Source: an uncultured virus (IMG/VR IMGVR_UViG_3300005440_000007) (lineage: Duplodnaviria > Heunggongvirae > Uroviricota > Caudoviricetes). From it: a stretch of 32,355 nucleotides of DNA. This document shows positions 7,493 through 32,355 of this stretch, piece after piece. The stretch is from IMG/VR virus record IMGVR_UViG_3300005440_000007. One strand, given 5' to 3'. A model generated the notes under the pieces. It had not been told where the DNA came from and did no database searches. It worked only from the letters and a program-made list of their open reading frames with translations. The position numbers were made by a program, and so were the translations under genes. How positions within the stretch are numbered: the first letter of the stretch is position 1; each line of letters begins with the position of its first letter.

Positions 7493-7768
7493 ATGCCACA
7501 CGCCACCACCTGCTCAAAATGCGGATGTATCTACGAATCCGGAAGCGAGGAGCAGGCCAACGAACGGCATCGCTGGTGTCCGTCATGCCGGATCTGCGTC
7601 GATTGCCAGGAACGCGGTGGCGTCCTTGGAGTTTGCGGCGTGGAGCATGGGCCCCTGTGCTCGGCCTGCATCAAGATTCACAATGACTCCCACGAGGAGC
7701 AGACGAAGCGTGACGCGGCCGACAAGAAAGAGTGGCCGGACCTCGCCCTCGAGGATGAAGACGAATGA
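7493..7768 (+). CDS. Cys-rich zinc-finger protein
   Basis: four CxxC pairs; ATGA overlap with next gene. Confidence 0.6.
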   Translation: MPHATTCSKCGCIYESGSEEQANERHRWCPSCRICVDCQERGGVLGVCGVEHGPLCSACIKIHNDSHEEQTKRDAADKKEWPDLALEDEDE

Positions 7769-8379
7769 CGACGAATCTTCTTCTTGAGAGCCCTCCCAAA
7801 GGGAGACCGAAACCAAAGCCCAGGCCGAATCGTAGCATCGCTAAAGGCTCAAAACTCAGTTCCAAGTATCACAACACCTACCTGTTCGATTACTGCGGAG
7901 AAGAAATCCGCAAGTGCCTTGCGCGGCTTTCCGACCAGGCGGAGCTCTACAAGAAGGGGTCCGATGCTGTTCGGAAAAGAATGCGCGTTCGGGCGCTCGT
8001 GGTCGCGTCATTGACCCTGAACGCTACAGCGGTCTGGACCGCAAAGCTTCTCATGCAAGGCAAGTTTTCGATGAGGACCCAGAAGGCTTTTTTCAAGAAG
8101 CGCTGGAAGCTTGATCCGAAGGAGTGGGGCACAACCGCCAAGAGCTGCTTCGCTCGGGCGCTCTGCGGATATTCCATAGGAGCTGACGGCGTCTGCGTGG
8201 ATCGTCATCTCGAGAGAATGGACCTTCTTCCGAAGGACGCCGCGGAACAGTGGCGGGACTGGTTCAGGCTCTACGAAAGCATGTACGGTCCCGGAGAGAC
8301 CGTCCTCTGCGTTCGATGGCATATAGAACTTCTCCACTGGATTGCGATGCAGGCCGAAAGACCTGTATCATGGAAATGA
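7765..8379 (+). CDS. hypothetical protein, possible HhH-GPD/endonuclease III-like motif
   Basis: DGVCVDRHLER resembles the (V/P)VDxH motif; family call weak. Confidence 0.55.
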   Translation: MTTNLLLESPPKGRPKPKPRPNRSIAKGSKLSSKYHNTYLFDYCGEEIRKCLARLSDQAELYKKGSDAVRKRMRVRALVVASLTLNATAVWTAKLLMQGKFSMRTQKAFFKKRWKLDPKEWGTTAKSCFARALCGYSIGADGVCVDRHLERMDLLPKDAAEQWRDWFRLYESMYGPGETVLCVRWHIELLHWIAMQAERPVSWK

Positions 8380-8651
8380 GTATGGAAGCCGACGGCAGCT
8401 CCGGGAATTTCTGCGGTTATTGCAGCAAGGCCGGCCATCGGACGGAGCAGTGCAGGGAAAAAACGGCGGACCGCCGCTTTGAGATGGCCATAGGATGCGG
8501 GATCGGGCTTCTGCTCGTCCCGTTCGCCTTGATCGGTCTCATCTTGGGCATCATCGGGAGTTCCGTGTGGGGAGGGGTCCGCTATGGCCTCAAGCTCTGG
8601 CCGGAATGGGCCGAACACATGAAGAAGCTCGTCTACAAGGAAAAATCATGA
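8376..8651 (+). CDS. CCHC zinc-knuckle plus transmembrane protein
   Basis: CGYCSKAGHRTEQC = Cx2Cx4Hx4C followed by a long hydrophobic helix; ATGA overlaps at both ends. Confidence 0.65.
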   Translation: MSMEADGSSGNFCGYCSKAGHRTEQCREKTADRRFEMAIGCGIGLLLVPFALIGLILGIIGSSVWGGVRYGLKLWPEWAEHMKKLVYKEKS

Positions 8652-9085
8652 GTCACGACCGCTTGGTCAAAGGCGCCGGGATCCTGGGGAGCCTCTGGCG
8701 AGAAGGAAACCGATGCGGCGCAGCCTGGTCGGGGATCTGCGTCTGCCCGGCCGTCCGGACTTTTTGCCTTGGGAAGAAAAAGTGGCTCGGGCTGCTGCGA
8801 GAACTTCACGAAGGGAAGTACCCTCACGACCTTTCCGGGAACGAGGGCTTCCTCGTCCTCGAATGCATGGATGAGGAAATGCTCAAGGCGACCGGGCTGA
8901 CGATAGTGAAGGTCGCTCCCCCTGGAAGAGCTCTTCTGCGAATTTGCAATATCGACAATCCTCTTGGAGAAATGCTCAAGCTGGCTCAGACAAGAAATAA
9001 CGGTCTGGACGAAAGCGGTCCAATCGTCTTGATGCAGGAACTGTGGTCCCCCGCCGAGACCCCTTCGGAGGCGGCCGTTTCGTAG
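8648..9085 (+). CDS. hypothetical protein
   Basis: AAGGA SD and ATGA overlap. Confidence 0.6.
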   Translation: MSHDRLVKGAGILGSLWREGNRCGAAWSGICVCPAVRTFCLGKKKWLGLLRELHEGKYPHDLSGNEGFLVLECMDEEMLKATGLTIVKVAPPGRALLRICNIDNPLGEMLKLAQTRNNGLDESGPIVLMQELWSPAETPSEAAVS

Positions 9086-9098
9086 TAGAATTAATTCG

Positions 9099-9299
9099 AT
9101 GCTGGTCTGCAGTACTTGCCACTCCCGAAGAGTTCCATGTCGAGGCGCTCACGACGACGCTCCCTTTGGAAGATGTGAAAGCTGCGGTCGGTCAGGAGAG
9201 CTGGTTTCCTGCGGGAAAAAAGCCGATCAGCAGTGGAGTTCCATCGGGATCTACCGGAACACTGCCTGGCTGAAATATCGACGTCCTCGAAAGAAGTAG
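9099..9299 (+). CDS. small CxxC zinc-finger protein
   Basis: CSTC...CESC; TAGAAT 7 nt upstream. Confidence 0.5.
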   Translation: MLVCSTCHSRRVPCRGAHDDAPFGRCESCGRSGELVSCGKKADQQWSSIGIYRNTAWLKYRRPRKK

Positions 9300-9350
9300 T
9301 ACCGGATAGGCCCTTCCGGGTATACTTCAGCCGAAGGTTCGGAGGACGAC

Positions 9351-9704
9351 ATGCATCAGAGAATACCCGTCAGCGCCAAGTTCGCCGCCGAAGGATTCGG
9401 CGGAAGCAAATTCACCCCCATGAGGTCGATCAGCGGCCCGATGGGCCGAATCGACCTGGGCCAAAACGGCGGAAACGGTCCTTCTCCCGCGCCTTCTCCG
9501 TCGCCGGCCCCGGCCCCAGCTCCCAGCTCGGACGTGGTGGTTCGGTCGTCGCCCTTCCTCATTCCGCCCGTGGTTCCGGTCGCGCCGACGTATCCGATCG
9601 CGCCGGAGCCCGTCTACGTGACGGAGCCCACCGACTACACGAACACCATCGTTCTGATCGGTGCCGCGATCGGCCTGGTCGCGTTGGGGGCCGCGCTCTC
9701 CTAG
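9351..9704 (+). CDS. Pro-rich protein with C-terminal transmembrane anchor
   Basis: GGAGG SD; MGRIDLGQNG, PSPAP repeats, terminal helix IVLIGAAIGLVALGAALS. Confidence 0.75.
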   Translation: MHQRIPVSAKFAAEGFGGSKFTPMRSISGPMGRIDLGQNGGNGPSPAPSPSPAPAPAPSSDVVVRSSPFLIPPVVPVAPTYPIAPEPVYVTEPTDYTNTIVLIGAAIGLVALGAALS

Positions 9705-9717
9705 AAAGTCGTCGGGC

Positions 9718-10161
9718 ATGGCGGATTACTACGAGCTCCTGGGCGTTTCGCGCACGGCCTCCATCGAAGAGATCCGCGCGGCCTACCGGAAGCGGGCGAG
9801 TGAATCCCATCCCGATCGGCACCCAGGCGATGCTGAAGTCGCCAAGAAATTCTGCGCGTTCTCCCAGGCCTACGAGACTCTCACGGACCAAGACCGGCGC
9901 CGGACCTACGACAAATCGGGGCCGTCCGAACATCCAAAGAGCCTCTTCGATTCCCTTGCCGAAGACCTTGAGTCCGCGCTCGCGCTCTTCGGTCAAGTCG
10001 CCAGCTTTTTCGAGGTCCCCGAGCCGAAGAAAAGAAGGGAATGTACGACGTGCGGAGGAACGGGAGAAACCACGATCGAGCTCGGCCCGCTCACTTTCAC
10101 TCAGAGCTGTCCTGACTGCGAAGCTGAAAAGCCTTCTCCGGTGAATGGCGATCGATCATAA
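9718..10161 (+). CDS. DnaJ (J-domain) protein with partial zinc finger
   Basis: DYYELLGV...IRAAYRK...HPD...AYETL.D..RR.YD; CTTCGGTG and CPDC. Confidence 0.9.
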   Translation: MADYYELLGVSRTASIEEIRAAYRKRASESHPDRHPGDAEVAKKFCAFSQAYETLTDQDRRRTYDKSGPSEHPKSLFDSLAEDLESALALFGQVASFFEVPEPKKRRECTTCGGTGETTIELGPLTFTQSCPDCEAEKPSPVNGDRS

Positions 10162-10168
10162 TAAGTCG

Positions 10169-10360
10169 ATGGCCCGTTCAAGTCCGACCCTTGGGATCAT
10201 CCGGAAATGTCGCGTTCGTGACATCGACAAGAAACGCCCCGGCCGCCGCTGGTGCCTTTATTCCAAGAAGAAACCGGGCCGCGTGATCGGGCGACATCCC
10301 TCGAGGGCCGCGGCGTTGCGACAGGAGCGCGCGATCGAGATCGCCAAGCACGGAGGATAG
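10169..10360 (+). CDS. small basic protein
   Basis: CATAAT 6 nt before ATG10169; WCLYSKK...GRHPSRAAALRQERAI. Confidence 0.65.
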   Translation: MARSSPTLGIIRKCRVRDIDKKRPGRRWCLYSKKKPGRVIGRHPSRAAALRQERAIEIAKHGG

Positions 10361-10363
10361 CCT

Positions 10364-10645
10364 ATGGCTGAAAAGCCAGCCTTCGTCGAGCAGACCGTCA
10401 TCATCAAGAAGGACCACCCCAACGCGCCGAACCGCAAGGCGGCCATGAAAGTCGCCCAGTATCACACGGGCCGCGCCTCGAAAACGATCAGGGAAACAAA
10501 GAGCTCATTTCGGGTTCGCCAGCGCCCCGTGACCTGCTTCGTCCCAGGAAGTTTCCGGACCAAGTGTCGCGGAAAGAAGAAGCTGACCTGCGTCACCTAC
10601 GGACGGCTCAAGCCAAGTGCGAGAGATCGCCAGTCGTGCCGATGA
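10364..10645 (+). CDS. small basic protein
   Basis: GGAGG SD; Lys/Arg rich. Confidence 0.7.
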   Translation: MAEKPAFVEQTVIIKKDHPNAPNRKAAMKVAQYHTGRASKTIRETKSSFRVRQRPVTCFVPGSFRTKCRGKKKLTCVTYGRLKPSARDRQSCR

Positions 10646-24629: not shown

Positions 24630-24703
24630 CCGCCTGTAGCTCAACAGCAGAGCGTCTGGTTTCCACCCAGATGATGCCGGTGCGACTCCGGTCAGGCGGT
24701 CCA
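24630..24703 (+). tRNA. tRNA-Gly(TCC)
   Basis: cloverleaf, CCA end, T-loop TGCGACT. Confidence 0.9.
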
Positions 24704-24706
24704 TCT

Positions 24707-24781
24707 GCGGGCGTAGCGTAGGAGCAACGCGTCTCCTTCCCAAGGAGAAGATCGCGGGTGCAAGTCCCGCCGCCCGCTCCA
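24707..24781 (+). tRNA. tRNA-Gly(CCC)
   Basis: cloverleaf, CCA, T-loop TGCAAGT. Confidence 0.9.
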
Positions 24782-24782
24782 C

Positions 24783-24856
24783 ATGCCGGTGGTGTAGCAG
24801 CAGCATCGCTGTTTCCAAGTCAGCGGGTAGAGGTGCGACTCCTCTCCGGCATGCCA
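24783..24856 (+). tRNA. tRNA-Trp(CCA)
   Basis: cloverleaf, loop TTCCAAG, G73, CCA. Confidence 0.85.
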
Positions 24857-24867
24857 AAATTGAAAAC

Positions 24868-24943
24868 GCCTCTGTAGGGGAGTGGAGTCCCCGCCTCCCT
24901 GTCACGGAGGAGACCGTGGGTTCGAATCCCATCAGGGGCGCCA
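24868..24943 (+). tRNA. tRNA-Asp(GTC)
   Basis: canonical cloverleaf, G73, CCA. Confidence 0.95.
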
Positions 24944-24981
24944 AGCTTCGGGCGTGGTCGCTTGTGCGTGTCGCCCTTTAT

Positions 24982-25055
24982 TCCCACGTCGTCTAAAGGT
25001 AGGACTGCGGTCTCTGAATCCGCCAATCGTGGTTCGAGTCCACGCGTGGGAACCA
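24982..25055 (+). tRNA. tRNA-Gln(CTG)
   Basis: canonical cloverleaf, U1-A72, CCA. Confidence 0.93.
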
Positions 25056-25059
25056 AGCT

Positions 25060-25383
25060 TTAGAGGCCGAAGCGATCCTTGATTTCCCTCTCGAGGCGAC
25101 GATACGGGGTCGTTCCGTCGATCTGGTAGAACTTCTTCCCGTCCTTGAAAAAGACAAGGGCGGGGATCGACGCGATCTCGTATCTCTCGGTCGCTTTTGG
25201 CGCCTCGTCGATATCGGCGCCGACGATCAGGACTTGACCCTTGAGCTCCTGGGCGAGTCGCTCGATCACGGGCTTGGCGGCCTTGCAGCCCGGGCACCAG
25301 GTGGCCCAGAACTCGATGATCGCGAACGGAGCTTTCAGGGCTTCTTCGAAGTTCGCGTCGGTGACCTGCAGAAGTTCGTTCAT
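25060..25383 (-). CDS. trxA: thioredoxin
   Basis: VTDANFE, EFWATWCPGCK, YEIASIPALVFFKDGK; antisense inside the array. Confidence 0.92.
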   Translation of the reverse strand: MNELLQVTDANFEEALKAPFAIIEFWATWCPGCKAAKPVIERLAQELKGQVLIVGADIDEAPKATERYEIASIPALVFFKDGKKFYQIDGTTPYRRLEREIKDRFGL

Positions 25384-25473
25384 AAGTTCCCCCTTGCCGG
25401 GGAATTCTAGCCTATTTTTCATTCCCTGTCACATCCCTATTCGGAGGCGCGCGATACCTTCAGGAGGTACCGC

Positions 25474-25665
25474 ATGACGAATCGGGAGAAACTCATCCGA
25501 GGGATCACGGAGTACGGACGAACGATCCAGGTGGACGGATGGCAGGCGGGGGAAGCCGTCATCCGGAAATACGAATCCAGGATCCCGGACTTCAGGCGTT
25601 GGGCCTATGCCCTCGGGATCCTGCTCAGAGCGGAAGAATTACTCGCCGGTCTAGCTCAGCAGTAG
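25474..25665 (+). CDS. hypothetical protein; last codons overlap tRNA-Phe
   Basis: AGGAGG SD before ATG. Confidence 0.6.
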   Translation: MTNREKLIRGITEYGRTIQVDGWQAGEAVIRKYESRIPDFRRWAYALGILLRAEELLAGLAQQ

Positions 25666-25719
25666 AGCGCCCGTCTGAAAAGCGGGAGGCGTCCGGGGCA
25701 GCACCGGAGGCCGGCACCA
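25645..25719 (+). tRNA. tRNA-Phe(GAA)
   Basis: cloverleaf, CCA, T-loop GGCAGCA. Confidence 0.87.
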
Positions 25720-25793
25720 GGGTCCATCGTCTAGCAGGAGGACGCGAGCGTGGCACGCTCGAGGCGGGAGTGCGATTCTCCCTGGATCCACCA
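25720..25793 (+). tRNA. tRNA-Ala(GGC)
   Basis: cloverleaf with G3:U70, CCA. Confidence 0.9.
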
Positions 25794-25798
25794 AAGCT

Positions 25799-25876
25799 TG
25801 CAGAGGAGAGGCATCCGGTGACCTCGCTTGGCTCATAACCAAGAGCTTGCGGGTTCGAATCCCGCCTCTGCTACCA
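25799..25876 (+). tRNA. tRNA-Met(CAT), initiator-like
   Basis: 1:72 mismatch (U/U), CTCATAA loop, TTCGAAT, CCA. Confidence 0.87.
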
Positions 25877-25906
25877 ATCTTCGGGGCCAAAGGGTTATAA
25901 TCCTGC

Positions 25907-26488
25907 GTGCCCAAGTACACGGCCAACTGGTTCCCGGCGGACGTTTTCGTGAAGTTCTGCCCAGGCCTAAAGGGAAAACAGAATCTCAGGTTCCTCGAGA
26001 TCGGCGTCTTCGAAGGTCAGGGAACGAGGTTCTTTTTCGAGAAGCTTCTGGGGCCGACGGGGACCTTGGTCGGGATCGATCCATTCATCGAGTACTCCAA
26101 GTCGACGGTAGCGAAGATCCCTGGATTCGACCATCTCATGAATGGATCGGTAGAGGAGCGGTTCCGGTCCAACACGGCAGAATTCGCTGCAAGGATCACG
26201 ATCCACAAAGGCTTGAGCCAGAACGTCCTTCCCGGCCTTCCAAGCCAGAGCTTCGACCTTTCCTTCGTCGATGGGGATCACAGTCGGGACGCGGTCGCCT
26301 TCGACGCGCTCCACTCCATGAGGCTCGTCAAAAAGGGCGGCTACATCGTCTTCGACGACTACGGCTGGGGATACAAAGATCGTCCGGAGACGTGCCCTAA
26401 GCCGGCGATCGACAAGTTCCTCATGCAGTACTCCAAGCAGCTCAACGTCCTCTTCAAGCAGTGGTGCGTCGTAGTCCAGAAAAAGTGA
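25907..26488 (+). CDS. class I SAM-dependent methyltransferase (Methyltransf_24-like)
   Basis: FLEIGVFEG, GIDPF, FDLSFVDGDH, LVKKGGYIVFDDY. Confidence 0.88.
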   Translation: MPKYTANWFPADVFVKFCPGLKGKQNLRFLEIGVFEGQGTRFFFEKLLGPTGTLVGIDPFIEYSKSTVAKIPGFDHLMNGSVEERFRSNTAEFAARITIHKGLSQNVLPGLPSQSFDLSFVDGDHSRDAVAFDALHSMRLVKKGGYIVFDDYGWGYKDRPETCPKPAIDKFLMQYSKQLNVLFKQWCVVVQKK

Positions 26489-26498
26489 GATCATTCCA

Positions 26499-26573
26499 GG
26501 GCCCATAGCTCAACCAGAAGAGCAGCCGGTTCGCAATCGGCAGACGGCGGGGCAGCACCGCCTGGGTCCACCA
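26499..26573 (+). tRNA. tRNA-Ala(CGC)
   Basis: cloverleaf, G3:U70, T-loop GGCAGCA, CCA. Confidence 0.88.
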
Positions 26574-26575
26574 AC

Positions 26576-26651
26576 GGGTCCGTAGCTCAATCAGGAGAGC
26601 GCCTGCTTTGCAAGCAGGAGGCAGCGGGAGCAAAGCCCGCCGGATCCACCA
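26576..26651 (+). tRNA. tRNA-Ala(TGC)
   Basis: cloverleaf, G3:U70, T-loop AGCAAAG, CCA. Confidence 0.88.
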
Positions 26652-26659
26652 ATCTTCCA

Positions 26660-26752
26660 GGGCGCTGGTCCGCTCGGCGGTCTGTAAAACCGTTGTCCAA
26701 AAATAAGAGCGGCGGTCAAGGACGAGAGGTTCAACTCCTCCAGCTCCCACCA
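26660..26752 (+). tRNA. tRNA-Tyr(GTA), atypical (no D arm, enlarged variable region)
   Basis: GCGGT-CTGTAAA-ACCGT anticodon arm, GAGG-TTCAACT-CCTC T arm, A73-CCA. Confidence 0.7.
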
Positions 26753-26753
26753 T

Positions 26754-26832
26754 TGCCCGGCACTCTGTACTGGTATCGGAGCTCCGCCTTTGAAGCGGGT
26801 GGGTGAAGGTTCGATTCCTTCCCGGGCAACCA
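26754..26832 (+). tRNA. tRNA-Gln(TTG)
   Basis: cloverleaf, U1-A72, CCA. Confidence 0.88.
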
Positions 26833-26841
26833 GAAAAATTT

Positions 26842-26915
26842 CGGGGTGTAGCACAACGGTAGTGCGCCTCTTTGCCAAGGAGGAGACGCCGGTTCGACAC
26901 CGGTCACCCCGTCCA
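26842..26915 (+). tRNA. tRNA-Gly(GCC)
   Basis: cloverleaf, U73, CCA. Confidence 0.92.
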
Positions 26916-26939
26916 ATATTTGGGCTATACTTCTGTTGG

Positions 26940-27179
26940 ATGAAGATGTTCCTCGCCGCCGTCTTGGCCCTTTCAGGATGTGCGGCTCCGGCGGGGAACA
27001 CGATCGACGCCACGATCCGAAACGACACTCCTATCCCATTCGTGGTGAAGGTCTCGACTCCCTGGGGACAGACGAGCGTCGTCATCGCTCCCGGCACAAC
27101 CTGGTCGGGCCAGGTGGATCGGCGTATGATCCCATCTCGGGTCTCGCTCGTCGTTGAACTTCCTTCCGCGCAGAAGTAG
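26940..27179 (+). CDS. small lipoprotein
   Basis: MKMFLAAVLALSG-C lipobox; TATACT 8 nt upstream. Confidence 0.75.
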   Translation: MKMFLAAVLALSGCAAPAGNTIDATIRNDTPIPFVVKVSTPWGQTSVVIAPGTTWSGQVDRRMIPSRVSLVVELPSAQK

Positions 27180-27188
27180 CCCTCATTC

Positions 27189-27263
27189 CGGCGTGTAGCT
27201 CAAAAGTAAGAGCAGTCGGCCGATAACCGACAGACAGTGGAGCGTTACCACTCACGCCGACCA
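27189..27263 (+). tRNA. tRNA-Ile(GAT)
   Basis: cloverleaf, C33, T-loop AGCGTTA, CCA. Confidence 0.85.
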
Positions 27264-27269
27264 ATATTC

Positions 27270-27343
27270 GGGGCCAAAGTGTTGCGGCGGCACGGTCGGC
27301 TGTGACCCGGCCAGGGTGGGTTCGACTCCCACTGGTCCCTCCA
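27270..27343 (+). tRNA. tRNA-His(GTG)
   Basis: cloverleaf, CCA; lacks G-1:C73. Confidence 0.87.
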
Positions 27344-27364
27344 AGATTCGATGTACAATCTGGT

Positions 27365-27574
27365 ATGCCTCAGATCGAGCAGTCCTGGAGAAACGAAAGC
27401 CGGGCCTGGAGGTGGCTTTCCAGGATCCTGTGCTTCTTCGGACTTCATCACTGGGTCTGGAGCACCACGCTCAAGGCAGCAATCGCCTGCGCGGTGTGCC
27501 CGAAGAAGACGAAGCATTGGCAGGAGTATCGCCGCAGGTCGGCGGAGGGGATGAGAAGAAGCTTTGATCCATGA
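27365..27574 (+). CDS. small Cys/His protein
   Basis: LCFFGLHHW...CAVC; TACAAT 5 nt upstream. Confidence 0.55.
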   Translation: MPQIEQSWRNESRAWRWLSRILCFFGLHHWVWSTTLKAAIACAVCPKKTKHWQEYRRRSAEGMRRSFDP

Positions 27575-27648
27575 CGGGCTCAGGGGTAGACAGCGACCCG
27601 CCTGCTTGGGGTGCAGGAGTAAGCGCGGTGCAAGTCCGCGGAGCCCGA
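27575..27648 (+). tRNA. tRNA-Pro(GGG), CCA not encoded
   Basis: cloverleaf, C1-G72, A73. Confidence 0.85.
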
Positions 27649-27657
27649 TAAATTTGA

Positions 27658-27958
27658 GAAGCGTTCGGTCTGTTGGTGCAAGTCGAAGCGATCACGGCGC
27701 GAAACGACCCACGTAAGTCTCCATGTCCTCAAGCCGCCTCGGAGGACGAAGGAGTGGCAGGGCCTCCAGGTCCGCTATTCGACCACATGCCTTTTGGAGA
27801 TGATCATGGCCGGGCCGGGGAAGCGAAGAGCTTCCAAGATTTGTGTCAGTCCTGCCGCGAGAGCGAGAGACGCCATAAAGGGAGCGCGGGCTCTGAAGTA
27901 CCGGCTAAAGCGTCCAGCAGGCGAGTGTGGGGGCTAAACCAAGGTCAGCGAACGCTTC
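27658..27958 (+). ncRNA. raiA-motif-like structured ncRNA
   Basis: terminal stem GAAGCGTTCG/CGAACGCTTC; blocks AAGTCGA..AAACGACCCACGTAAG, AGTCCTGCCGC..GCGAGAG, CCAGCAGGCGAGTGTGGGG..AGGTCA match my recollection of the raiA motif in order (not checked against a model). Confidence 0.8.
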
Positions 27959-27962
27959 ACTT

Positions 27963-28036
27963 GGGCGCGTAGGATAACAGAAGACCGCCTGCGTGACATG
28001 CAGGAGGAGCTGGTGCGACTCCAGCCGTGCCCACCA
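27963..28036 (+). tRNA. tRNA-Val(GAC)
   Basis: cloverleaf with weak D stem, CCA. Confidence 0.85.
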
Positions 28037-28054
28037 ATTTTGTAAGATGATTCC

Positions 28055-28252
28055 ATGAGCCGAAAGGAAGAAATCCTCAGGAGAGCCGAAGAGCTCCGGC
28101 GCCAGGAGAAGACGTCGAGGAAACCTCCCGACAGCCCATACGATGGAAGAGGGATGGTGTCGCGAATGCCGCTCGGCTGCTGGATCTGGATCCTGGGGCT
28201 TGCAGCGCTCGTTCTTTACGCCTTCAGTCGGTTCGTCGTCGGTGTACACTGA
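28055..28252 (+). CDS. small single-TM protein
   Basis: charged N-terminus, C-terminal hydrophobic helix; TAAGAT 6 nt upstream. Confidence 0.6.
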   Translation: MSRKEEILRRAEELRRQEKTSRKPPDSPYDGRGMVSRMPLGCWIWILGLAALVLYAFSRFVVGVH

Positions 28253-28364
28253 AATCGACCGGATCACCTGGACCCCTAACTCTGGTGGCGGGGTTCGGGT
28301 CGGCAAGGATCGAGGGTGTGCGCCTTCGCGAGGGGCTGACCCGGACCCCGCTCCCGATTTTCCC

Positions 28365-28440
28365 GCCGGCGTAGTTTAGCAGCTCTGAATGCGGCATTGG
28401 TAATGCCGAGGTGCGGGGGCAGCACCCGCCGCCGGCTCCA
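28365..28440 (+). tRNA. tRNA-Thr(GGT)
   Basis: cloverleaf, T-loop GGCAGCA, CCA. Confidence 0.87.
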
Positions 28441-28506
28441 AAAATAAAAAAGCCCAGGCTACGCACCTGGGCCTCGGGCGGGTCTAGTGATCGGATTGTA
28501 GCACAT

Positions 28507-28581
28507 GCTGGCGTAGCTCAACAGCAGAGCCCCCGCCTTGTAAGCGGACAGATGCCGGTGCAAGACCGGTCGCCAGCTCCA
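28507..28581 (+). tRNA. tRNA-Thr(TGT)
   Basis: cloverleaf, CCA. Confidence 0.88.
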
Positions 28582-28657
28582 AAATAATAAAGCCCGGAGA
28601 AACAGGACTTCTGCCCTCCGGGCCATGTGCGGTATGTGTCAGAAAGATTCTACACGA

Positions 28658-28732
28658 GCCAGTCTCGTCCAACAAGAAGGACGTCGGTTTCATAAGCCGA
28701 AGATAGCGGGGCAGATCCGCTGGCTGGCACCA
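28658..28732 (+). tRNA. tRNA-Met(CAT), elongator-like
   Basis: cloverleaf, loop TTCATAA, T-loop GGCAGAT, CCA. Confidence 0.82.
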
Positions 28733-28738
28733 AAGCTT

Positions 28739-28830
28739 GGAGGGTTTGGTACATCGGCAGGTCCGCTCCGCTCGAACCGGAGTAGGTCTCGAAAGGGGCC
28801 TTGGGCGTTCAACTCGCCCACCCTCCTCCA
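28739..28830 (+). tRNA. tRNA-Ser(CGA)
   Basis: long variable arm, GGAG acceptor, CCA. Confidence 0.87.
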
Positions 28831-28908
28831 AAAAAATTCGAGCCCAGGCGAAGTGCCTGGGCTCGGGAGAGGGAAACGCCTTTCGAAGGCTGAGAAATTC
28901 TACCACAT

Positions 28909-28998
28909 GGAGACGAAGGCAGTCAGCGTGCCGCACCGGCTTGAACCCGGTTGCCCGGCTCGTCCGGGTCGCGCGTGCAACTCGCGCCGTCTCCTCCA
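28909..28998 (+). tRNA. tRNA-Ser(TGA)
   Basis: long variable arm, CCA. Confidence 0.87.
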
Positions 28999-29006
28999 AG
29001 TTTCAT

Positions 29007-29097
29007 GGAGGCGTTGGGCATAGGCAAGCCCACTTCGTTGGAAGCGAAGGGCCGACGATTCGTTGGCTTGCAGGTTCGACTCCTGCCGTCTCCGCCA
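29007..29097 (+). tRNA. tRNA-Ser(GGA)
   Basis: long variable arm, G73, CCA. Confidence 0.92.
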
Positions 29098-29098
29098 T

Positions 29099-29185
29099 GG
29101 AAGAGTACGGCTAATTGGTAAGCCACCGTGTTGCTAACGCGGCGCCCTCACAGGCTTGTGGGTTCGAGTCCCACCTCTTCCGCCA
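29099..29185 (+). tRNA. tRNA-Ser(GCT)
   Basis: long variable arm, G73, CCA. Confidence 0.93.
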
Positions 29186-29262
29186 ATCTTGAAAGTCACC
29201 AGTCGTTCGACCAGGCCAGGATAGCGTGCCCAGCACGACGGCTCTGGATCGGCGACGATCGG

Positions 29263-29337
29263 TGCGGGACAGAAGGCCGGGCCTCGACGGGTTTCATAAG
29301 CCTGTTACTGCGTGTTCAACTCACGGTCCCGCTACCA
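29263..29337 (+). tRNA. atypical tRNA with CAT anticodon (Met/fMet-like)
   Basis: T.GCGGGAC/GTCCCGC.T acceptor, tiny D loop, loop TTCATAA, 4-bp T stem with TTCAACT, CCA. Confidence 0.7.
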
Positions 29338-29338
29338 T

Positions 29339-29413
29339 GCACCGTTGGCGAAATGGGAACGCGGCCGCCTGCAAAGCGGTCATGACCGGGCTCGATCCCC
29401 GGACGGTGCTCCA
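29339..29413 (+). tRNA. tRNA-Cys(GCA)
   Basis: cloverleaf, U73, CCA. Confidence 0.88.
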
Positions 29414-29443
29414 AGCTTCTTCCATGATCGGATTGGGAGCGTT

Positions 29444-29737
29444 ATGATGACGCTCATGACAGCCAAGTTCGCGGCCAATCCATTCCAGGGCGTTTCGTTC
29501 GGCCTGGACCACTCCTTCATGTACCGCCAGGAGGATCCGGAGCACTGGATCGTCTACCAGAGGAAAGACGGCCTCATCGTCGCGTCCTTCGACGGAACCG
29601 AAGCATTTCCGGGAACATCCCAGAATCTCGATCAGTCGCAGAGAAAATTCTGGGCCCAGGAGCTCGCGTACCGGGAATGCATTCGGAGGAATTCCCCTGC
29701 GGCCCCGGATCTCGCGGCGATCGACACCACGCCATAG
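29444..29737 (+). CDS. hypothetical protein
   Basis: GGGAG SD; fills the gap between tRNAs. Confidence 0.6.
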   Translation: MMTLMTAKFAANPFQGVSFGLDHSFMYRQEDPEHWIVYQRKDGLIVASFDGTEAFPGTSQNLDQSQRKFWAQELAYRECIRRNSPAAPDLAAIDTTP

Positions 29738-29753
29738 CAGAAACTTCATCCAG

Positions 29754-29829
29754 GCCGGTGTAGCTCATTCAGCAGAGCGCCGAGTTCGTAACTCGGAGGC
29801 GGCGAGGGCAGAGCTCGCCACCGGCTCCA
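29754..29829 (+). tRNA. tRNA-Thr(CGT)
   Basis: cloverleaf, T-loop GGCAGAG, CCA. Confidence 0.87.
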
Positions 29830-29830
29830 T

Positions 29831-29905
29831 TCCGGGATCAGCTCAACGGTAAGCTGCTCGGTTGTTACCCGAGTCATGGGGGTTCGAATCCCTCTCCCGG
29901 AGCCA
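29831..29905 (+). tRNA. tRNA-Asn(GTT)
   Basis: cloverleaf, U1-A72, G73, CCA. Confidence 0.92.
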
Positions 29906-29910
29906 ATCTT

Positions 29911-29985
29911 GCCCCTGTCGCGTAACAGACAGCGCGCCGAGCTTCTACCTCGGAAGTGCGGGTGCAATTCCTGCCGGGGGTACCA
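29911..29985 (+). tRNA. tRNA-Arg(TCT)
   Basis: cloverleaf, CCA. Confidence 0.88.
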
Positions 29986-29986
29986 T

Positions 29987-30060
29987 GGCCTCATCGACTA
30001 TGAGTAGGTCGGCACCCTCTCAAGGTGCAGGAGCGAGTGCGAATCTCGCTGAGGCTACCA
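29987..30060 (+). tRNA. tRNA-Glu(CTC)
   Basis: cloverleaf, CCA. Confidence 0.9.
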
Positions 30061-30065
30061 ATCTT

Positions 30066-30140
30066 GGGCCGCTCGTCTACGAGTTAGGATCTCCGGTTTT
30101 CACCCGGAGGGACAGGGTGCGAGTCCCTGGCGGCCTGCCA
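30066..30140 (+). tRNA. tRNA-Glu(TTC)
   Basis: cloverleaf, CCA. Confidence 0.9.
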
Positions 30141-30143
30141 ATT

Positions 30144-30644
30144 TTAGCTGAAGATCGCGTAGAGCGCGGCCGCGATCCCGACGGCGCCAAGAGCGTATGG
30201 CGCAGCTTCTTCGATCGTCGTCTTCTTCTCCTCGCTTGCCTGGAACTCAAAGGCAGCTTCCGGAGGAGTGGTCGGCGGATAGTAGTAGATCGGCGGGTAG
30301 TACGGGAAGTAGTAGATCGGCGGCCGCGGGCGAGGCGGGCACGAGGCGGGTTCCTTCTTGTAGGTGATCGTCCCGTCCGGCTGCTTGCATTCGAAGAGCT
30401 GGAGGCAGGATCCGTTCTCCCTGAAGGGAACTCCGAGGCGCTTGCAGTCTGCTGGGGGAGGAGGGGGCGGAGGAAGCGGTTCCGGTTCAGGTTCCAGAGC
30501 GGGCTCCGGCGCGGGCTCGGGTTCCGGCATCGGTGCCGGTTCCGGAGGAAGCACGTCGGGGAGAGGGCCATTCTGGCCCATGCGGGCGCGCGTGAACGGG
30601 GATCCCTGGAACGGGAGCTGTCTCAAGAAGGTCTTCTGGAACAT
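30144..30644 (-). CDS. Pro-rich protein with C-terminal transmembrane anchor
   Basis: AAAGGAG SD; RARMGQNG, PEP repeats, 4-Cys mini domain, PPIYY repeats, terminal helix YALGAVGIAAALYAIFS. Confidence 0.8.
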   Translation of the reverse strand: MFQKTFLRQLPFQGSPFTRARMGQNGPLPDVLPPEPAPMPEPEPAPEPALEPEPEPLPPPPPPPADCKRLGVPFRENGSCLQLFECKQPDGTITYKKEPASCPPRPRPPIYYFPYYPPIYYYPPTTPPEAAFEFQASEEKKTTIEEAAPYALGAVGIAAALYAIFS

Positions 30645-30710
30645 TCCGCTCTCCTTTCGGGCTTCAGGAAGAATTATAGCCACAACCTGGCTTCTAAAAA
30701 ACAGAGATCT

Positions 30711-30784
30711 GCCTCCGTAGATCAACAGCAGATGACCCGGCTTTTACCCGGGGGATGAAGGTGCGAATCCTTCCGGAGGCACCA
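30711..30784 (+). tRNA. tRNA-Lys(TTT)
   Basis: cloverleaf, CCA. Confidence 0.9.
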
Positions 30785-30792
30785 GAAAATTC

Positions 30793-30866
30793 GGGAGCGT
30801 AGTTCAACAGCAGAAGACCCGGCTCTTACCCGGGGGATGAGGGTGCAACTCCCTCCGCTCCCACCA
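30793..30866 (+). tRNA. tRNA-Lys(CTT)
   Basis: cloverleaf, CCA. Confidence 0.9.
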
Positions 30867-30874
30867 AACTTCAA

Positions 30875-30951
30875 GCCGCCGTGGCGCAACCAGCAGACGC
30901 GCTCGTTTCAAAAACGAGATCTTGCGGGTGCGAGTCCCGCCGGCGGCACCA
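30875..30951 (+). tRNA. tRNA-Leu(CAA), short variable loop
   Basis: cloverleaf, A73, CCA. Confidence 0.88.
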
Positions 30952-30955
30952 TCCT

Positions 30956-31031
30956 GGGCCCGTGGCGGAACAGCATACGCGCTCGCCTTAGGAGCGAGAT
31001 TTTGGGGGTGCAAATCCCTCCGGGCCTACCA
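30956..31031 (+). tRNA. tRNA-Leu(TAG), short variable loop
   Basis: cloverleaf, A73, CCA. Confidence 0.88.
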
Positions 31032-31037
31032 AAATTC

Positions 31038-31114
31038 GCGGCTGTGATGCAACTGGCAGACATCTTCGGCTCAGAACCGGAGTCCTGGAGGTTCGAATCC
31101 TCTCGGCCGCACCA
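31038..31114 (+). tRNA. tRNA-Leu(CAG), short variable loop
   Basis: cloverleaf, A73, CCA. Confidence 0.9.
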
Positions 31115-31121
31115 AAGATTT

Positions 31122-31195
31122 GCCCCGCTATTTCAACAGTAGAATGCCTGTCTCACATACAGGTGATGGGGGTGCAACTCCCTCGCGGGGTACCA
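31122..31195 (+). tRNA. tRNA-Val(CAC)
   Basis: cloverleaf, CCA. Confidence 0.88.
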
Positions 31196-31334
31196 AAAAA
31201 TTTACGAGGCCGCGAAGATCTGGCGATCTCCGCGGCCTCAGGCAGGGACCCGTTGCCCCTCTCTCCGGGAACTGGGGAGAATATGTTGTCACCATGGATT
31301 CAGAATCGTGAAAAATGTTACTCGAAAAATATTT

Positions 31335-31412
31335 GCCCGTGTAGACCAACTGGCAGGAGTCACGACGCTGAGAACGTCGGTAGTGGAGGTTCGAATCCTC
31401 TCGCGGGCACCA
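31335..31412 (+). tRNA. tRNA-Leu(GAG), short variable loop
   Basis: cloverleaf, A73, CCA. Confidence 0.9.
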
Positions 31413-31420
31413 AACTTCAT

Positions 31421-31497
31421 CGGGGCGTAGGGTAGCGGCTTAACCCGCCTGTTTCGGATACAGGAAATCGCGTGTTCAAATCACGCCGCCCCGACCA
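31421..31497 (+). tRNA. tRNA-Pro(CGG)
   Basis: cloverleaf, C1-G72, CCA. Confidence 0.93.
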
Positions 31498-31545
31498 TTT
31501 TTTTTGATTCTTGAAAGCCTTCAGATACCGTGATAGGCTTGAGCT

Positions 31546-32127
31546 GTGTTCGAGCCTATCTTTCCGGGGGCCACAATTCCTATCCGTTCAGTAATTCTTG
31601 GCCAATCGGATCCACGCGATCCAGAGTATTGGCGAAAAGCTCTGGAGAGATTTAAGGAAGATAAAAAGGAACTGGAGGAATTCTACGGGCCTAGAAGCCC
31701 GGAGCAAGAAAAGCTGCTTGAGTATTACCGCGATATGATACCCAGGGTAGAATCATTTCTTCAGACCGGATGGTGGCCTCCATTTCCAGGGACACCCGGC
31801 CGTAGCAAGGCTCTTCCTGGCGGTGGAGTTCTGATGCTACCTCCATTTGAGTCGCTCACGGCTCCTGAAACTCCTCCACCTCCCCCTCCACCACTGCCTG
31901 TGCCTAGCGGTGGGATAACCAGGAGAGGAATAATAGATCGGCCGGACGTTGCCACGACTATGTGTCCTCAGGGGCAATTCTGGGACGGCCAGAGATGTCG
32001 TGGAAGCGTTTCGTCATTCGGTGCCTTTGGTGGGCTTGCCCTTCAGCCTGGCGGCGGTGCAACAACGTTCACCATGGGTAGTATTCCGCTTGTCCGCGGC
32101 ATTGGCACCCGTGCGCTTGGCTTGTAG
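31546..32127 (+). CDS. Pro-rich hypothetical protein with LG-motif leader
   Basis: TTGAAA-17-TAGGCT 6 nt before GTG; RSVILGQ, poly-Pro, CPQGQFWDGQRC; architecture like ORF 23235. Confidence 0.7.
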   Translation: MFEPIFPGATIPIRSVILGQSDPRDPEYWRKALERFKEDKKELEEFYGPRSPEQEKLLEYYRDMIPRVESFLQTGWWPPFPGTPGRSKALPGGGVLMLPPFESLTAPETPPPPPPPLPVPSGGITRRGIIDRPDVATTMCPQGQFWDGQRCRGSVSSFGAFGGLALQPGGGATTFTMGSIPLVRGIGTRALGL

Positions 32128-32151
32128 ACGGTAGAAACGTCAAATCTTCTC

Positions 32152-32227
32152 GGGCCGTTAGCTCAACGGCAAAGAGCGAGCGTCTCATAAACGCCTGACG
32201 CGAGATCGACACTCGCACGGCCCACCA
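32152..32227 (+). tRNA. tRNA with CAT anticodon, probably Ile2 (lysidine type)
   Basis: GGGCC acceptor, CTCATAA loop, T-loop ATCGACA, CCA; Ile2 versus Met is inferred. Confidence 0.8.
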
Positions 32228-32235
32228 AACATCAA

Positions 32236-32311
32236 CAGGCTCAAGGGTAGATAGCGACCCGCCTGCCTTGGAAGCAGGAGCAGCGGCGTGCAAGTCGCCG
32301 GAGCCTGACCA
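32236..32311 (+). tRNA. tRNA-Pro(TGG)
   Basis: cloverleaf, C1-G72, CCA. Confidence 0.88.
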
Positions 32312-32312
32312 C

Positions 32313-32355
32313 GCCCCCGTGGGGTAGTAGATGCCCGGCGATCTCCTACATCGCA
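32313..32355 (+). tRNA. tRNA-Arg(CCT), truncated by window end
   Basis: acceptor 5' strand, D arm and GCGAT-CTCCTAC-ATCGC anticodon arm. Confidence 0.75.

Follow-up and report, generated by a model that had tools for sequence, protein, structure and literature searches.

A coupled A18/G55 replacement of the tRNA elbow contact in a dense tRNA gene array of a phage-like element

Introduction

By the usual teaching, the tRNA fold universally includes G18, U55 and pseudouridine 55. At the elbow, the T loop is described as a five-base motif closed by a reverse Hoogsteen pair between its first and fifth bases, with base 18 of the D loop intercalating between loop bases 4 and 5 (57 and 58) and making one hydrogen-bonded contact to base 2 (55), and with base 3 (56) pairing with base 19. 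The elbow is recognised mainly through this outer pair, whose flat face serves as the stacking surface for the ribosome, RNase P, T-boxes and several enzymes (PMC4810234). Pseudouridine 55 has been called the 'most universally conserved' modification, and the TruB target is given as 53-GUUYRANYC-61 (PMC7912444). Yeast SUP4 did not tolerate single changes of G18 or U55, and the only rescue of G18A came from shifting a G into place (PMC4117946). According to a survey of riboswitch T loops, 88.7% of these follow UGNRA, the intercalator is almost exclusively an adenosine, which is bound through two hydrogen bonds to the sugar edge of the position-2 G, UUCRA loops of the tRNA type are functional but weaker in the unmodified riboswitch setting, and a GGAAG T loop occurs in rRNA (bioRxiv 10.1101/2022.12.26.521914). 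Here we analyse a stretch of 32,355 bases (59.7% G+C; hereafter the window) from an uncultured virus, IMG/VR record IMGVR_UViG_3300005440_000007, which carries a dense array of tRNA genes on its + strand from position 24630 to its end. A18 and G55 replace G18 and U55 in 24 of the 41 complete tRNA genes of the window and in 27 of 45 on its parent contig. Judged from the sequences and their relatives, it is probable that these are working tRNA genes of a large soil phage-like element, in which the elbow lock is rebuilt by matched changes at positions 18 and 55.

Coupled replacement of positions 18 and 55

ARAGORN reported 34 tRNA genes in the window and the Rfam model RF00005, at its gathering score, 33; their union is 40, and a sub-threshold Tyr-GTA-like gene brings the total to 41, all on the + strand (Table 1). 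Each gene was parsed into a cloverleaf from the Rfam and ARAGORN bounds, and the loops were then tabulated. G55 occurs in 24 of 41 genes (T loops TGCAA in 9, TGCGA in 8, GGCAG in 5, AGCAA and AGCGT in 1 each) and U55 in 17 (TTCGA in 11, TTCAA in 4 plus Tyr, CTCGA and ATCGA in 1 each). D-loop positions 18-19 are A-G in all 24 G55 tRNAs and G-G in all 16 U55 tRNAs that have a D loop, with no off-diagonal case (24/0/0/16; Fisher p = 1.6e-11 with the tRNAs treated as independent). These are the counts that a preliminary description of this DNA had reached by hand alignment, and its remark that Tyr lacks a D loop also holds, only a 3-bp/3-nt hairpin being present there. Mutual information between 18 and 55 within the array, a check which that description had proposed for related arrays, is 0.944 bit, the whole entropy of position 55 (36 tRNAs scored, with 5 of irregular D arm left out), and the next-best partner of 55 among 29 other positions and the loop-length measures is position 57 (0.22). 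Every one of the 40 genes with a D loop, including all 24 swapped ones, has G19 and C56. The conserved G18 and U55 of RF00005 are both replaced in 24 of 41 genes, 22 of them unambiguously.

Whether the A-G truly occupies positions 18-19 was also put to formal alignment. Of 10 swapped genes aligned to RF00005 with cmscan, 8 place A at the G18 of the model, G at its G19 and G at its U55 (Lys-TTT, Lys-CTT, Leu-TAG, Val-CAC, Leu-CAA, Ile-GAT, Phe and Ala-CGC). The two ambiguous cases, Ala-TGC (AATCAGGA) and Ala-GGC (AGCAGGA), are the points at which a hand-alignment artefact could enter, as the model takes the GG after the A as 18-19 and deletes position 20; scoring both against the coupling gives 22/0/2/16 (Fisher p = 2.4e-9). 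The Ala-CGC ortholog of the relative L154 (99% identical) reads AACCAGGA against AACCAGAA in the window, and this A/G difference marks the third purine as the variable position 20, which favours the A18 reading of AGG loops and hence, for these two ambiguous D loops, an A18 assignment. Seven-base D loops of swapped genes align without gaps to those of canonical paralogs, as in Gly-TCC (AACAGCA/TGCGACT) against Gly-GCC (AACGGTA/TTCGACA), which share a T stem, and the D loops of Leu-CAA (AACCAGCAG) and Leu-CAG (AACTGGCAG) offer a comparable pair; in such paralogs it is precisely the elbow bases that differ, within a context they otherwise have in common. The register is fixed independently by covariation of the base after A18 with position 56 in another array (L023), where Arg-CCT has A-C with G56, Arg-CCG A-U with A56, and Thr-GGT and Glu-TTC A-A with U56. 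An artefact of alignment, which could touch at most 2 of the 24 genes, is thus scarcely credible as an account of the pattern; the A18/G55 observation is confirmed formally for 22 of 24 genes and ambiguous for 2.

L023 is a viral contig (59% G+C); in its array (7705-10583) 19:56 is found as C:G, U:A, A:U and G:C with A18/G55 unchanged, and this array also contains two Pro tRNAs with C55 and G18 (TCCGA loops).

Positions 54 and 58 vary in the window as well, and every statement made about them in the preliminary description proved correct in the tabulated loops. G54/G58 is found in Phe, Ala-CGC, Thr-GGT, Thr-CGT and the CAU tRNA at 28658, A54/A58 in Ala-TGC and the CAU tRNA at 32152, and A54/U58 in Ile-GAT. 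U54/A58 is retained in 17 of the 24 swapped genes, the other 7 being G/G, A/A or A/U.

Structural integrity and divergence among relatives

The acceptor stem has 7 of 7 pairs in 38 of 41 genes and the T stem 5 of 5 in 39 of 41, and each of the 24 swapped genes is complete in both; only CAU-a, CAU-c and the Tyr-like gene fall short. An encoded CCA is found in 40 of 41 genes (23 of 24 swapped). Measured against the amino-acid identity rules known from Escherichia coli, G3:U70 is present in all 3 Ala genes, each of them swapped, C1:G72 with A73 in all 3 Pro genes, U73 in Gly, and A73 in the Leu, Val and Lys genes. Swapped and canonical anticodons together cover all 20 amino acids, and CAU is the only anticodon repeated.

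An exact search for the end of the window found no match in viral contigs and 8 loci in metagenome contigs. Three of these eight contigs are diverged (L154, 97%; L155, 94%; L153, 81-91%). Most tRNAs are identical among the relatives and stem differences are compensatory, with such changes in L153 in the acceptor and T stems of Glu-CTC, the acceptor stem of Leu-GAG, and the acceptor, D and anticodon stems of Pro-CGG. The two states also replace one another between orthologs. Arg-CCG has AACAGATC/CGCGACT on the contig of the window and AACGGATC/TTCGACT in the 94%-identical L155; the orthologs differ at 7 positions in 72 nt, two of which form a compensatory D-stem pair, and by its sequence this is a coupled flip of 18 and 55 between near-identical genomes. 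In L153 the place of Val-CAC is taken by a gene with AACGGTA and ATCATCA. The argument of the preliminary description for selected, structured tRNAs rather than decay is borne out, as far as sequence comparison reaches, by the intact stems, encoded CCA, G3:U70, compensatory changes, the Arg-CCG flip and recurrence elsewhere.

Occurrence beyond the contig

An exact search with one swapped D arm (18 bases) as bait matched 21 loci in viral contigs and at least 124 loci in bacterial species genomes. Because ARAGORN depends on the T-loop consensus, tRNAs at these loci were called with our own stem-only scanner, which recovered 35 of the 41 window genes with one false call (of lowest score) and made no call in three shuffles. 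Over the loci fetched it found 687 distinct tRNAs, this and the following counts that include genome loci being among the matches listed. After removal of 45 bait-carrying tRNAs and 38 from two known plasmid arrays, 604 remained, of which 519 were scorable and 85 had C55 or an unclear 18-19. The 519 comprise 416 A18/G55, 93 G18/U55, 10 G18/G55 and no A18/U55 tRNAs; viral loci contribute 29 A18/G55, 29 G18/U55 and none mixed, and genome loci 387, 64, 10 and 0, respectively. Since each locus was selected for holding an A18 gene, little can be read from the frequencies, but the coupling is informative. A18/U55 was seen among the bait-bearing tRNAs, in two distinct Thr-CGT genes (L007/L015 and L117), which are possible intermediates.

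Phage contigs that carry the swap span 33-66% G+C. The cultured Erythrobacter phage XM05 (PV416404) has two swapped Val tRNAs (AGTTAG[T/G]A with GGCAGGA) of 12 in the stretch scanned (L026 6726-8731); the 12 were called by the stem-only scanner, and the feature table of the record lists only protein-coding genes there. Among the matches listed, the bacterial carriers of long swapped arrays are above all Verrucomicrobia, with Planctomycetota, Chloroflexia, Obscuribacterales, Streptomyces, myxobacteria and candidate-phyla-radiation bacteria also represented. The known plasmid arrays are nearly free of the swap in ARAGORN calls (Nostoc pCC7120delta 1/24, Paenibacillus pSC2 0/40). In the wider sample, a base other than U at 54 occurs in 243 of 497 G55 tRNAs against 14 of 157 U55 tRNAs, the 54/58 variants being G/G, A/U, C/A, C/C and A/A, and departure from the TruB/TrmA regime thus seems to relax the 54/58 pair as well. 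Best matches of the window tRNAs to the 687 outside tRNAs have identities of 0.62-0.82, at which ancestry is not resolved.

A candidate geometry for the swapped elbow

With A18 and G55, the T loop would keep its five-base fold and base 18 would still intercalate between 57 and 58. The sugar edge of G55 would present N2-H and N3, where U55 or pseudouridine presents a carbonyl only; G18, with donors only toward that edge, would no longer fit, and A18 would fit through its N1 acceptor and N6-H donor. On this donor/acceptor scheme single changes should be bad and the double change good, and its structural reasoning has a good foundation in the known behaviour of T loops. The arrangement would be that of an ordinary non-tRNA T loop, U-G-N-R-A, with an intercalated adenosine bonded to the G sugar edge. 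That consensus is matched by 17 of the 24 G55 loops, the other 7 differing at positions 1 and 5, and an adenosine intercalator is compatible with the sequences, with A at 18 in 22-24 of 24. The outer G19:C56 pair, on whose face the ribosome, RNase P, the CCA-adding enzyme and T-boxes stack, would be untouched; since it is unchanged, elbow-reading machinery should handle swapped tRNAs normally.

The preliminary description had suggested independence from TruB- and TrmA-type modification or escape from nucleases that read the elbow. For TruB this stands: G55 cannot be isomerised to pseudouridine nor A18 converted to Gm18, which makes independence a chemical fact, and the swapped loops lie outside the TruB target. 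Independence from TrmA does not follow, as 17 of 24 swapped genes keep U54, and escape finds no support here and is weakened by the 16 canonical tRNAs of the array. We infer that the swapped elbow may fold by itself without host T-loop modification or chaperoning, a property that would suit bulk tRNAs of a mobile element in any host.

Several points weigh against working tRNAs with a rebuilt elbow, or against the mechanism proposed for them. The hydrogen-bond scheme of A18 with G55 is an inference, and its geometry may not be that of riboswitches, where the strand that supplies the intercalating adenosine has the reverse order, with the partner of base 3 ahead of the intercalator. A benefit of modification-free folding leaves the 16 canonical tRNAs of the same array unexplained. 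Placement of GG at 18-19 by RF00005 in Ala-TGC and Ala-GGC was noted above, and the p-values overstate independence, the tRNAs being related and the outside loci having been found with an A18 bait. Ten G18/G55 tRNAs occur elsewhere, 8 of them in one Arg-TCG family with a CGAAA T loop, so G55 is not strictly dependent on A18. Contigs from RNA libraries (two runs, small shares) contain Glu-TTC and Pro-TGG (X22) and Lys-TTT/Lys-CTT (X21), which may reflect DNA carry-over; as DNA may be present and ends and strand are not readable, they were not counted as evidence of transcription.

The Arg-TCG family comes from Verrucomicrobial loci (L030, L049, L068, L073, L074, L093, L098 and L102) and combines a CGAAA or TGAGA T loop with D loops of the kind AATGTATA; it scores as G18/G55 with U19:A56 and is the main exception to the coupling.

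Alternative explanations

That the G55 genes are decaying pseudogenes, decoys or tRNA-like RNAs with another role, and not tRNAs of translation, seems very unlikely. Gene finders do score them lower, six of the seven genes that ARAGORN misses being G55 genes with a base other than U at 54, and Pro-GGG lacks CCA and Ile-GAT has C33; the cell-wall tRNAGly of staphylococci, moreover, indicates that altered-elbow tRNAs with non-ribosomal roles are possible (PMC4574755). Pseudogenes or decoys would, however, hardly encode CCA in 23 of 24 cases with 7/7 acceptor and 5/5 T-stem pairs in 24 of 24, complement the canonical anticodons to all 20 amino acids with only CAU repeated, keep the identity elements of Ala (G3:U70), Pro (C1:G72 and A73) and Gly (U73), and change in compensatory fashion between relatives; G19 and C56 are kept, unlike in the staphylococcal tRNAs. 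Some contact-dependent inhibition toxins cleave within the T loop, and the swap might conceal the tRNAs of the phage from host nucleases or toxins that recognise the T loop or elbow, or mark them as self for a phage factor that clears away host tRNAs, the compensation between 18 and 55 being the same and escape its driver. Concentration of the swap in phage and mobile-array tRNAs, its rarity or absence in the two known plasmid arrays, and the evasion of anticodon nucleases by phage tRNAs through loop changes (PMC10264068, PMC11555353) agree with such counter-defence, which we nevertheless regard as unlikely. Sixteen of the 41 tRNAs are canonical, and as Asp, Asn, His, Cys and both Gln exist in canonical form only, a nuclease specific for the canonical elbow would still stop translation. 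Swapped isoacceptors also vary by array (L012 and L023 have a swapped Asn, the window and L022 a canonical one). Comparison of 28 window ORFs (open reading frames) with Pfam revealed no nuclease, RNA ligase or repair gene, and the text available of van den Berg et al., on phage tRNAs that evade nucleases, does not mention T or D loops in a term search. Nuclease escape has no support in the window.

A serious rival, to which we give a somewhat better though still minor chance, is that A18/G55 is a near-neutral second solution of rare origin, reached through a tolerated A18/U55 state and spread by descent and horizontal transfer without being better. The A18/U55 Thr-CGT genes fit it, as do T-loop types inherited per isoacceptor across dozens of Verrucomicrobial loci (Phe CGCGC, Lys-TTT TGCAT, Gly-TCC GGCAG), the C33, AGAC variable loop and AGCGTYA T loop that the window Ile-GAT shares with Verrucomicrobial Ile-GAT, and the presence of both states in one array with flips between close relatives. 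Yet the swap extends across contigs of 33% to 66% G+C and many phyla, the swapped isoacceptors differ by array and therefore need repeated events, and the best outside matches of the window tRNAs reach only 62-82% identity, too little to demonstrate that the elbow is shared by descent; SUP4 did not tolerate single changes at G18 or U55, so the path is not freely neutral (PMC4117946). Equally doubtful as counter-defence is a broader idea, that A18:G55 marks a distinct, horizontally circulating class of mobile tRNAs whose elbow is orthogonal to the host T-loop machinery (no substrate for TruB or TrmH), free of the U54/A58 rule and possibly invisible to T-loop-directed tRNases. If this were true, phages and arrays would run a tRNA pool that the cell cannot modify, chaperone or selectively destroy, and the coupled flips between close relatives would be an ongoing elbow arms race.

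Two further explanations were rejected. Avoidance of restriction sites (TTCGA contains TCGA) conflicts with the 11 canonical TTCGA loops that remain in the array, and a rule by amino acid or by GatCAB or queuosine substrate class conflicts with the different sets of swapped isoacceptors in different arrays. Ile-GAT genes of Verrucomicrobial arrays at the bait loci have C, U or A at 33 and T loops like AGCGTCA.

Gene-finder bias and significance

ARAGORN at default settings misses 7 of the 41 genes (four GGCAG-loop genes, both AGC-loop genes and Tyr) and sets wrong bounds for Thr-CGT. At the Rfam gathering score of 29 bits, 33 of 41 genes are reported at 41.5-63.1 bits, 19 of them swapped; the eight not reported are the Tyr-like gene, Gln-TTG, Pro-GGG, Ser-CGA, Ser-TGA, CAU-c, Glu-TTC and Pro-TGG, seven of which ARAGORN calls. 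Gene finders tuned to GTTC thus under-call swapped genes, which, if these tRNAs work, biases phage tRNA counts and analyses of codon supply. Hundreds of tRNAs of phages and bacterial arrays appear to use this second, co-varying elbow solution. If swapped tRNAs work, the elbow contact would be a replaceable module with a simple rule, U55 with G18 and G55 with A18, and a large class of tRNAs would escape both pseudouridine 55 and Gm18, offering a natural test of the purpose of these modifications and of TruB and TrmA as chaperones, and a possible design for engineering tRNAs whose folding needs no modification. An immediate experimental handle is the cultured Erythrobacter phage XM05.

Organisation of the array and its carrier

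The window is a 100% match to part of a metagenome contig of 98,208 bases (L152), on which the array extends by four Arg genes (Arg-CCT, Arg-GCG, Arg-TCG and Arg-CCG), the first 43 bases of Arg-CCT being the last of the window. The 45 tRNA genes of that contig cover all 20 amino acids. With 41 genes packed in 7.7 kb on one strand, and 45 on the contig, the array has the size of long arrays and phage clusters (at least 20 co-oriented, closely spaced genes on a mobile or viral element). Upstream ORFs, among the 28 scanned in the window, match the Pfam families GP88, HerA-type ATPase, PolX thumb, ThyX, nucleotidyl transferase and a PAPS-reductase domain, and ORFs for a thioredoxin and a class I methyltransferase lie within the tRNA array. 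The HerA-type ATPase ORF also matches a PHROG terminase family. The PHROG comparison covered 21 ORFs and gave only weak viral signals, namely this HerA/terminase-like family, a tail family (1.9e-8) and a family without known function. For seven ORFs downstream and three at the far end of that locus, PHROG matches were confined to a kinase and a tail-protein family. As these signals are few and weak, a large phage is the likely but not proven carrier. No HNH family was found by Pfam among the 28 window ORFs, a scan that left small ORFs and most of the 98-kb contig outside.

When the whole array was compared by BLAST with phage and plasmid collections, only single tRNAs matched (77-88% identity) and no related array was found, and relatives of the array methyltransferase were found at two loci (25-28% identical, 43-44% G+C) without tRNAs. 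Twenty DNA runs from soil and rhizosphere contain at least 81% of the sampled words of the array, and six of these runs may be its source. The small ORFs inside it behave as variable cargo, with the neighbouring tRNA genes retained: a DNA contig of run X12 joins 25874 to 26499, skipping the methyltransferase ORF, and the relatives L154 and L155 lack 31497-32143, including the ORF at 31546-32124.

Individual genes depart from the usual form in other respects. Two of the four CAU-anticodon tRNAs, those at 25799 and 29263, have a U1/U72 mismatch atop the acceptor stem that is reminiscent of initiator tRNA. Ile-GAT has C in place of the near-invariant U33 (anticodon loop CCGATAA). The Tyr-GTA-like gene, the sole Tyr candidate of the array, has its D arm replaced by the short hairpin and its variable region is long; its score is only 23.9 bits (as tRNA-Sec), and with the threshold relaxed ARAGORN misreads it as Arg-CCG. 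Immediately downstream of some genes an A-rich stretch leads into a G+C-rich hairpin, namely after Thr-GGT (28441-28480), Thr-TGT (28582-28625) and Ser-CGA (28831-28870), all on the + strand, and could be processing or terminator-like elements between tRNA genes. Directly after the CCA-less Pro-GGG, inside the array, a raiA-motif RNA (RF03072) is matched at 27659-27957 (+) with 101.4 bits against a gathering score of 101.3 (E 5.8e-24), the match spanning 299 nt where the model has 209 positions. Descriptions of raiA RNAs come from chromosomes of Bacillota and Actinomycetota (PMC10861870); a copy in the tRNA array of a phage-like element seems unusual and may hint at an actinobacterial host.

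Table 1 Genes of the tRNA array in the window
Feature	Elbow state	Coordinates	Strand	D loop, T loop	Remarks
tRNA array, 41 complete genes and 5' part of a 42nd		24630..32355	+		3 further Arg tRNAs past the window end on the parent contig
Gly-TCC	A18/G55	24630..24703	+	AACAGCA, TGCGACT	
Gly-CCC	A18/G55	24707..24781	+	AGGAGCA, TGCAAGT	
Trp-CCA	A18/G55	24783..24856	+	AGCAGCA, TGCGACT	
Asp-GTC	canonical G18/U55	24868..24943	+		
Gln-CTG	canonical G18/U55	24982..25055	+		
Phe-GAA	A18/G55, G54/G58	25645..25719	+	AGCAGTA, GGCAGCA	missed by ARAGORN
Ala-GGC	G55	25720..25793	+	AGCAGGA, TGCGATT	ambiguous: A18-G19-G20, or G18-G19 without position 20
CAU tRNA a	canonical G18/U55	25799..25876	+		U1/U72 mismatch
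Ala-CGC	A18/G55, G54/G58	26499..26573	+	AACCAGAA, GGCAGCA	missed by ARAGORN
Ala-TGC	G55, A54/A58	26576..26651	+	AATCAGGA, AGCAAAG	D loop ambiguous like Ala-GGC
Tyr-GTA-like	U55	26660..26752	+	T loop TTCAACT	no normal D arm; below Rfam threshold
Gln-TTG	canonical	26754..26832	+		
Gly-GCC	canonical	26842..26915	+	AACGGTA, TTCGACA	T stem that of swapped Gly-TCC
Ile-GAT	A18/G55, A54/U58	27189..27263	+	AAAAGTAA, AGCGTTA	C33
His-GTG	canonical	27270..27343	+		
Pro-GGG	A18/G55	27575..27648	+	AGACAGCG, TGCAAGT	sole gene without encoded CCA
Val-GAC	A18/G55	27963..28036	+	AACAGAA, TGCGACT	
Thr-GGT	A18/G55, G54/G58	28365..28440	+	AGCAGCTCT, GGCAGCA	missed by ARAGORN
Thr-TGT	A18/G55	28507..28581	+	AACAGCA, TGCAAGA	
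CAU tRNA b	A18/G55, G54/G58	28658..28732	+	AACAAGAA, GGCAGAT	missed by ARAGORN
Ser-CGA	canonical	28739..28830	+		
Ser-TGA	A18/G55	28909..28998	+	D loop contains CAGC; T loop TGCAACT	
Ser-GGA	canonical	29007..29097	+		
Ser-GCT	canonical	29099..29185	+		
CAU tRNA c	canonical U55	29263..29337	+	T loop TTCAACT	U1/U72 mismatch; 4-bp T stem
Cys-GCA	G18/U55, C54	29339..29413	+	T loop CTCGATC	
Thr-CGT	A18/G55, G54/G58	29754..29829	+	ATTCAGCA, GGCAGAG	ARAGORN bounds wrong
Asn-GTT	canonical	29831..29905	+		
Arg-TCT	A18/G55	29911..29985	+	AACAGACA, TGCAATT	
Glu-CTC	A18/G55	29987..30060	+	ATGAGTA, TGCGAAT	
Glu-TTC	A18/G55	30066..30140	+	ACGAGTTA, TGCGAGT	
Lys-TTT	A18/G55	30711..30784	+	AACAGCA, TGCGAAT	
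Lys-CTT	A18/G55	30793..30866	+	AACAGCA, TGCAACT	
Leu-CAA	A18/G55	30875..30951	+	AACCAGCAG, TGCGAGT	
Leu-TAG	A18/G55	30956..31031	+	AACAGCAT, TGCAAAT	
Leu-CAG	canonical	31038..31114	+	AACTGGCAG, TTCGAAT	
Val-CAC	A18/G55	31122..31195	+	AACAGTA, TGCAACT	
Leu-GAG	canonical	31335..31412	+		
Pro-CGG	canonical	31421..31497	+		
CAU tRNA d	G18/U55, A54/A58	32152..32227	+	AACGGCAAA, ATCGACA	
Pro-TGG	A18/G55	32236..32311	+	AGATAGCG, TGCAAGT	
Arg-CCT, 5' part		32313..32355	+		cut by window end; whole gene on L152 is A18/G55 (AGTAGAT, TGCGACT)

Comparison with known systems

No description of natural A18-G55 tRNAs was found in the full-text literature searched; subscription journals and supplements lay outside this search, and a prior description is possible. 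Term searches of the available text of three closely related papers point the same way: the L-array paper (PMC8421152) does not use T loop, T-arm or tertiary, the review of non-canonical tRNAs (PMC7609411) does not mention an altered elbow, and 'G55' is absent from the review of T-loop modification (PMC7912444). No structure of an A18/G55-type tRNA was found.

Relative to the canonical elbow (G18-pseudouridine 55, G19:C56, U54-A58 reverse Hoogsteen pair, stacked R57), the swapped tRNAs have the same cloverleaf and loop lengths and keep G19:C56, G53:C61 and purine 57, with U54/A58 in 17 of 24; they differ in having both 18 and 55 replaced, which precludes the supposedly universal 18-55 contact as well as pseudouridine 55, and, in 7 of 24, also in 54/58. 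In their loops they resemble the T loops of riboswitches (FMN, cobalamin), RNase P and rRNA, 17 of the 24 reading U-G-C-R-A with adenosine as the presumed intercalator, and the five GGCAG loops of the window resemble the rRNA T loop GGAAG (bioRxiv 10.1101/2022.12.26.521914). In the window, however, the motif sits in a tRNA, where the third base also forms a Watson-Crick pair with 19, directly 3' of the intercalator, and the order of the partner bases is reversed relative to riboswitch T loops. Natural departures from G18/U55 are described for the non-proteinogenic tRNAGly of staphylococci, tRNAPyl and many mitochondrial tRNAs (PMC4574755, PMC7609411), but as far as these sources describe them such tRNAs lose G19 and C56 or the whole D/T contact, where the window shows a co-varying replacement; the joint loss of G18, G19, U55 and C56 of the staphylococcal type is not seen, G19 and C56 being kept in 24 of 24. 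Phage tRNAs that evade nucleases likewise differ from those of the host at otherwise conserved loop positions, but the changes reported lie in the anticodon loop and have a shown target (PMC10264068; PMC11555353), whereas the change here is in the elbow.

As an array, the locus resembles the described phage tRNA clusters and L-arrays in its dozens of packed, same-strand, mostly CCA-encoding genes and small variable ORFs on a mobile or viral element (PMC8421152, PMC6409571). It differs from the delta-plasmid array of Nostoc (Anabaena) PCC 7120, which is nearly all canonical (1 of 24 swapped). An HNH gene is annotated adjacent to the Nostoc array; none was found among the 28 ORFs scanned in the window. 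Set beside these systems, the window is, on the sequence comparisons presented here, a clean and large case of an alternative tRNA elbow built on covariation, one that is met widely among the tRNAs of phages and arrays.

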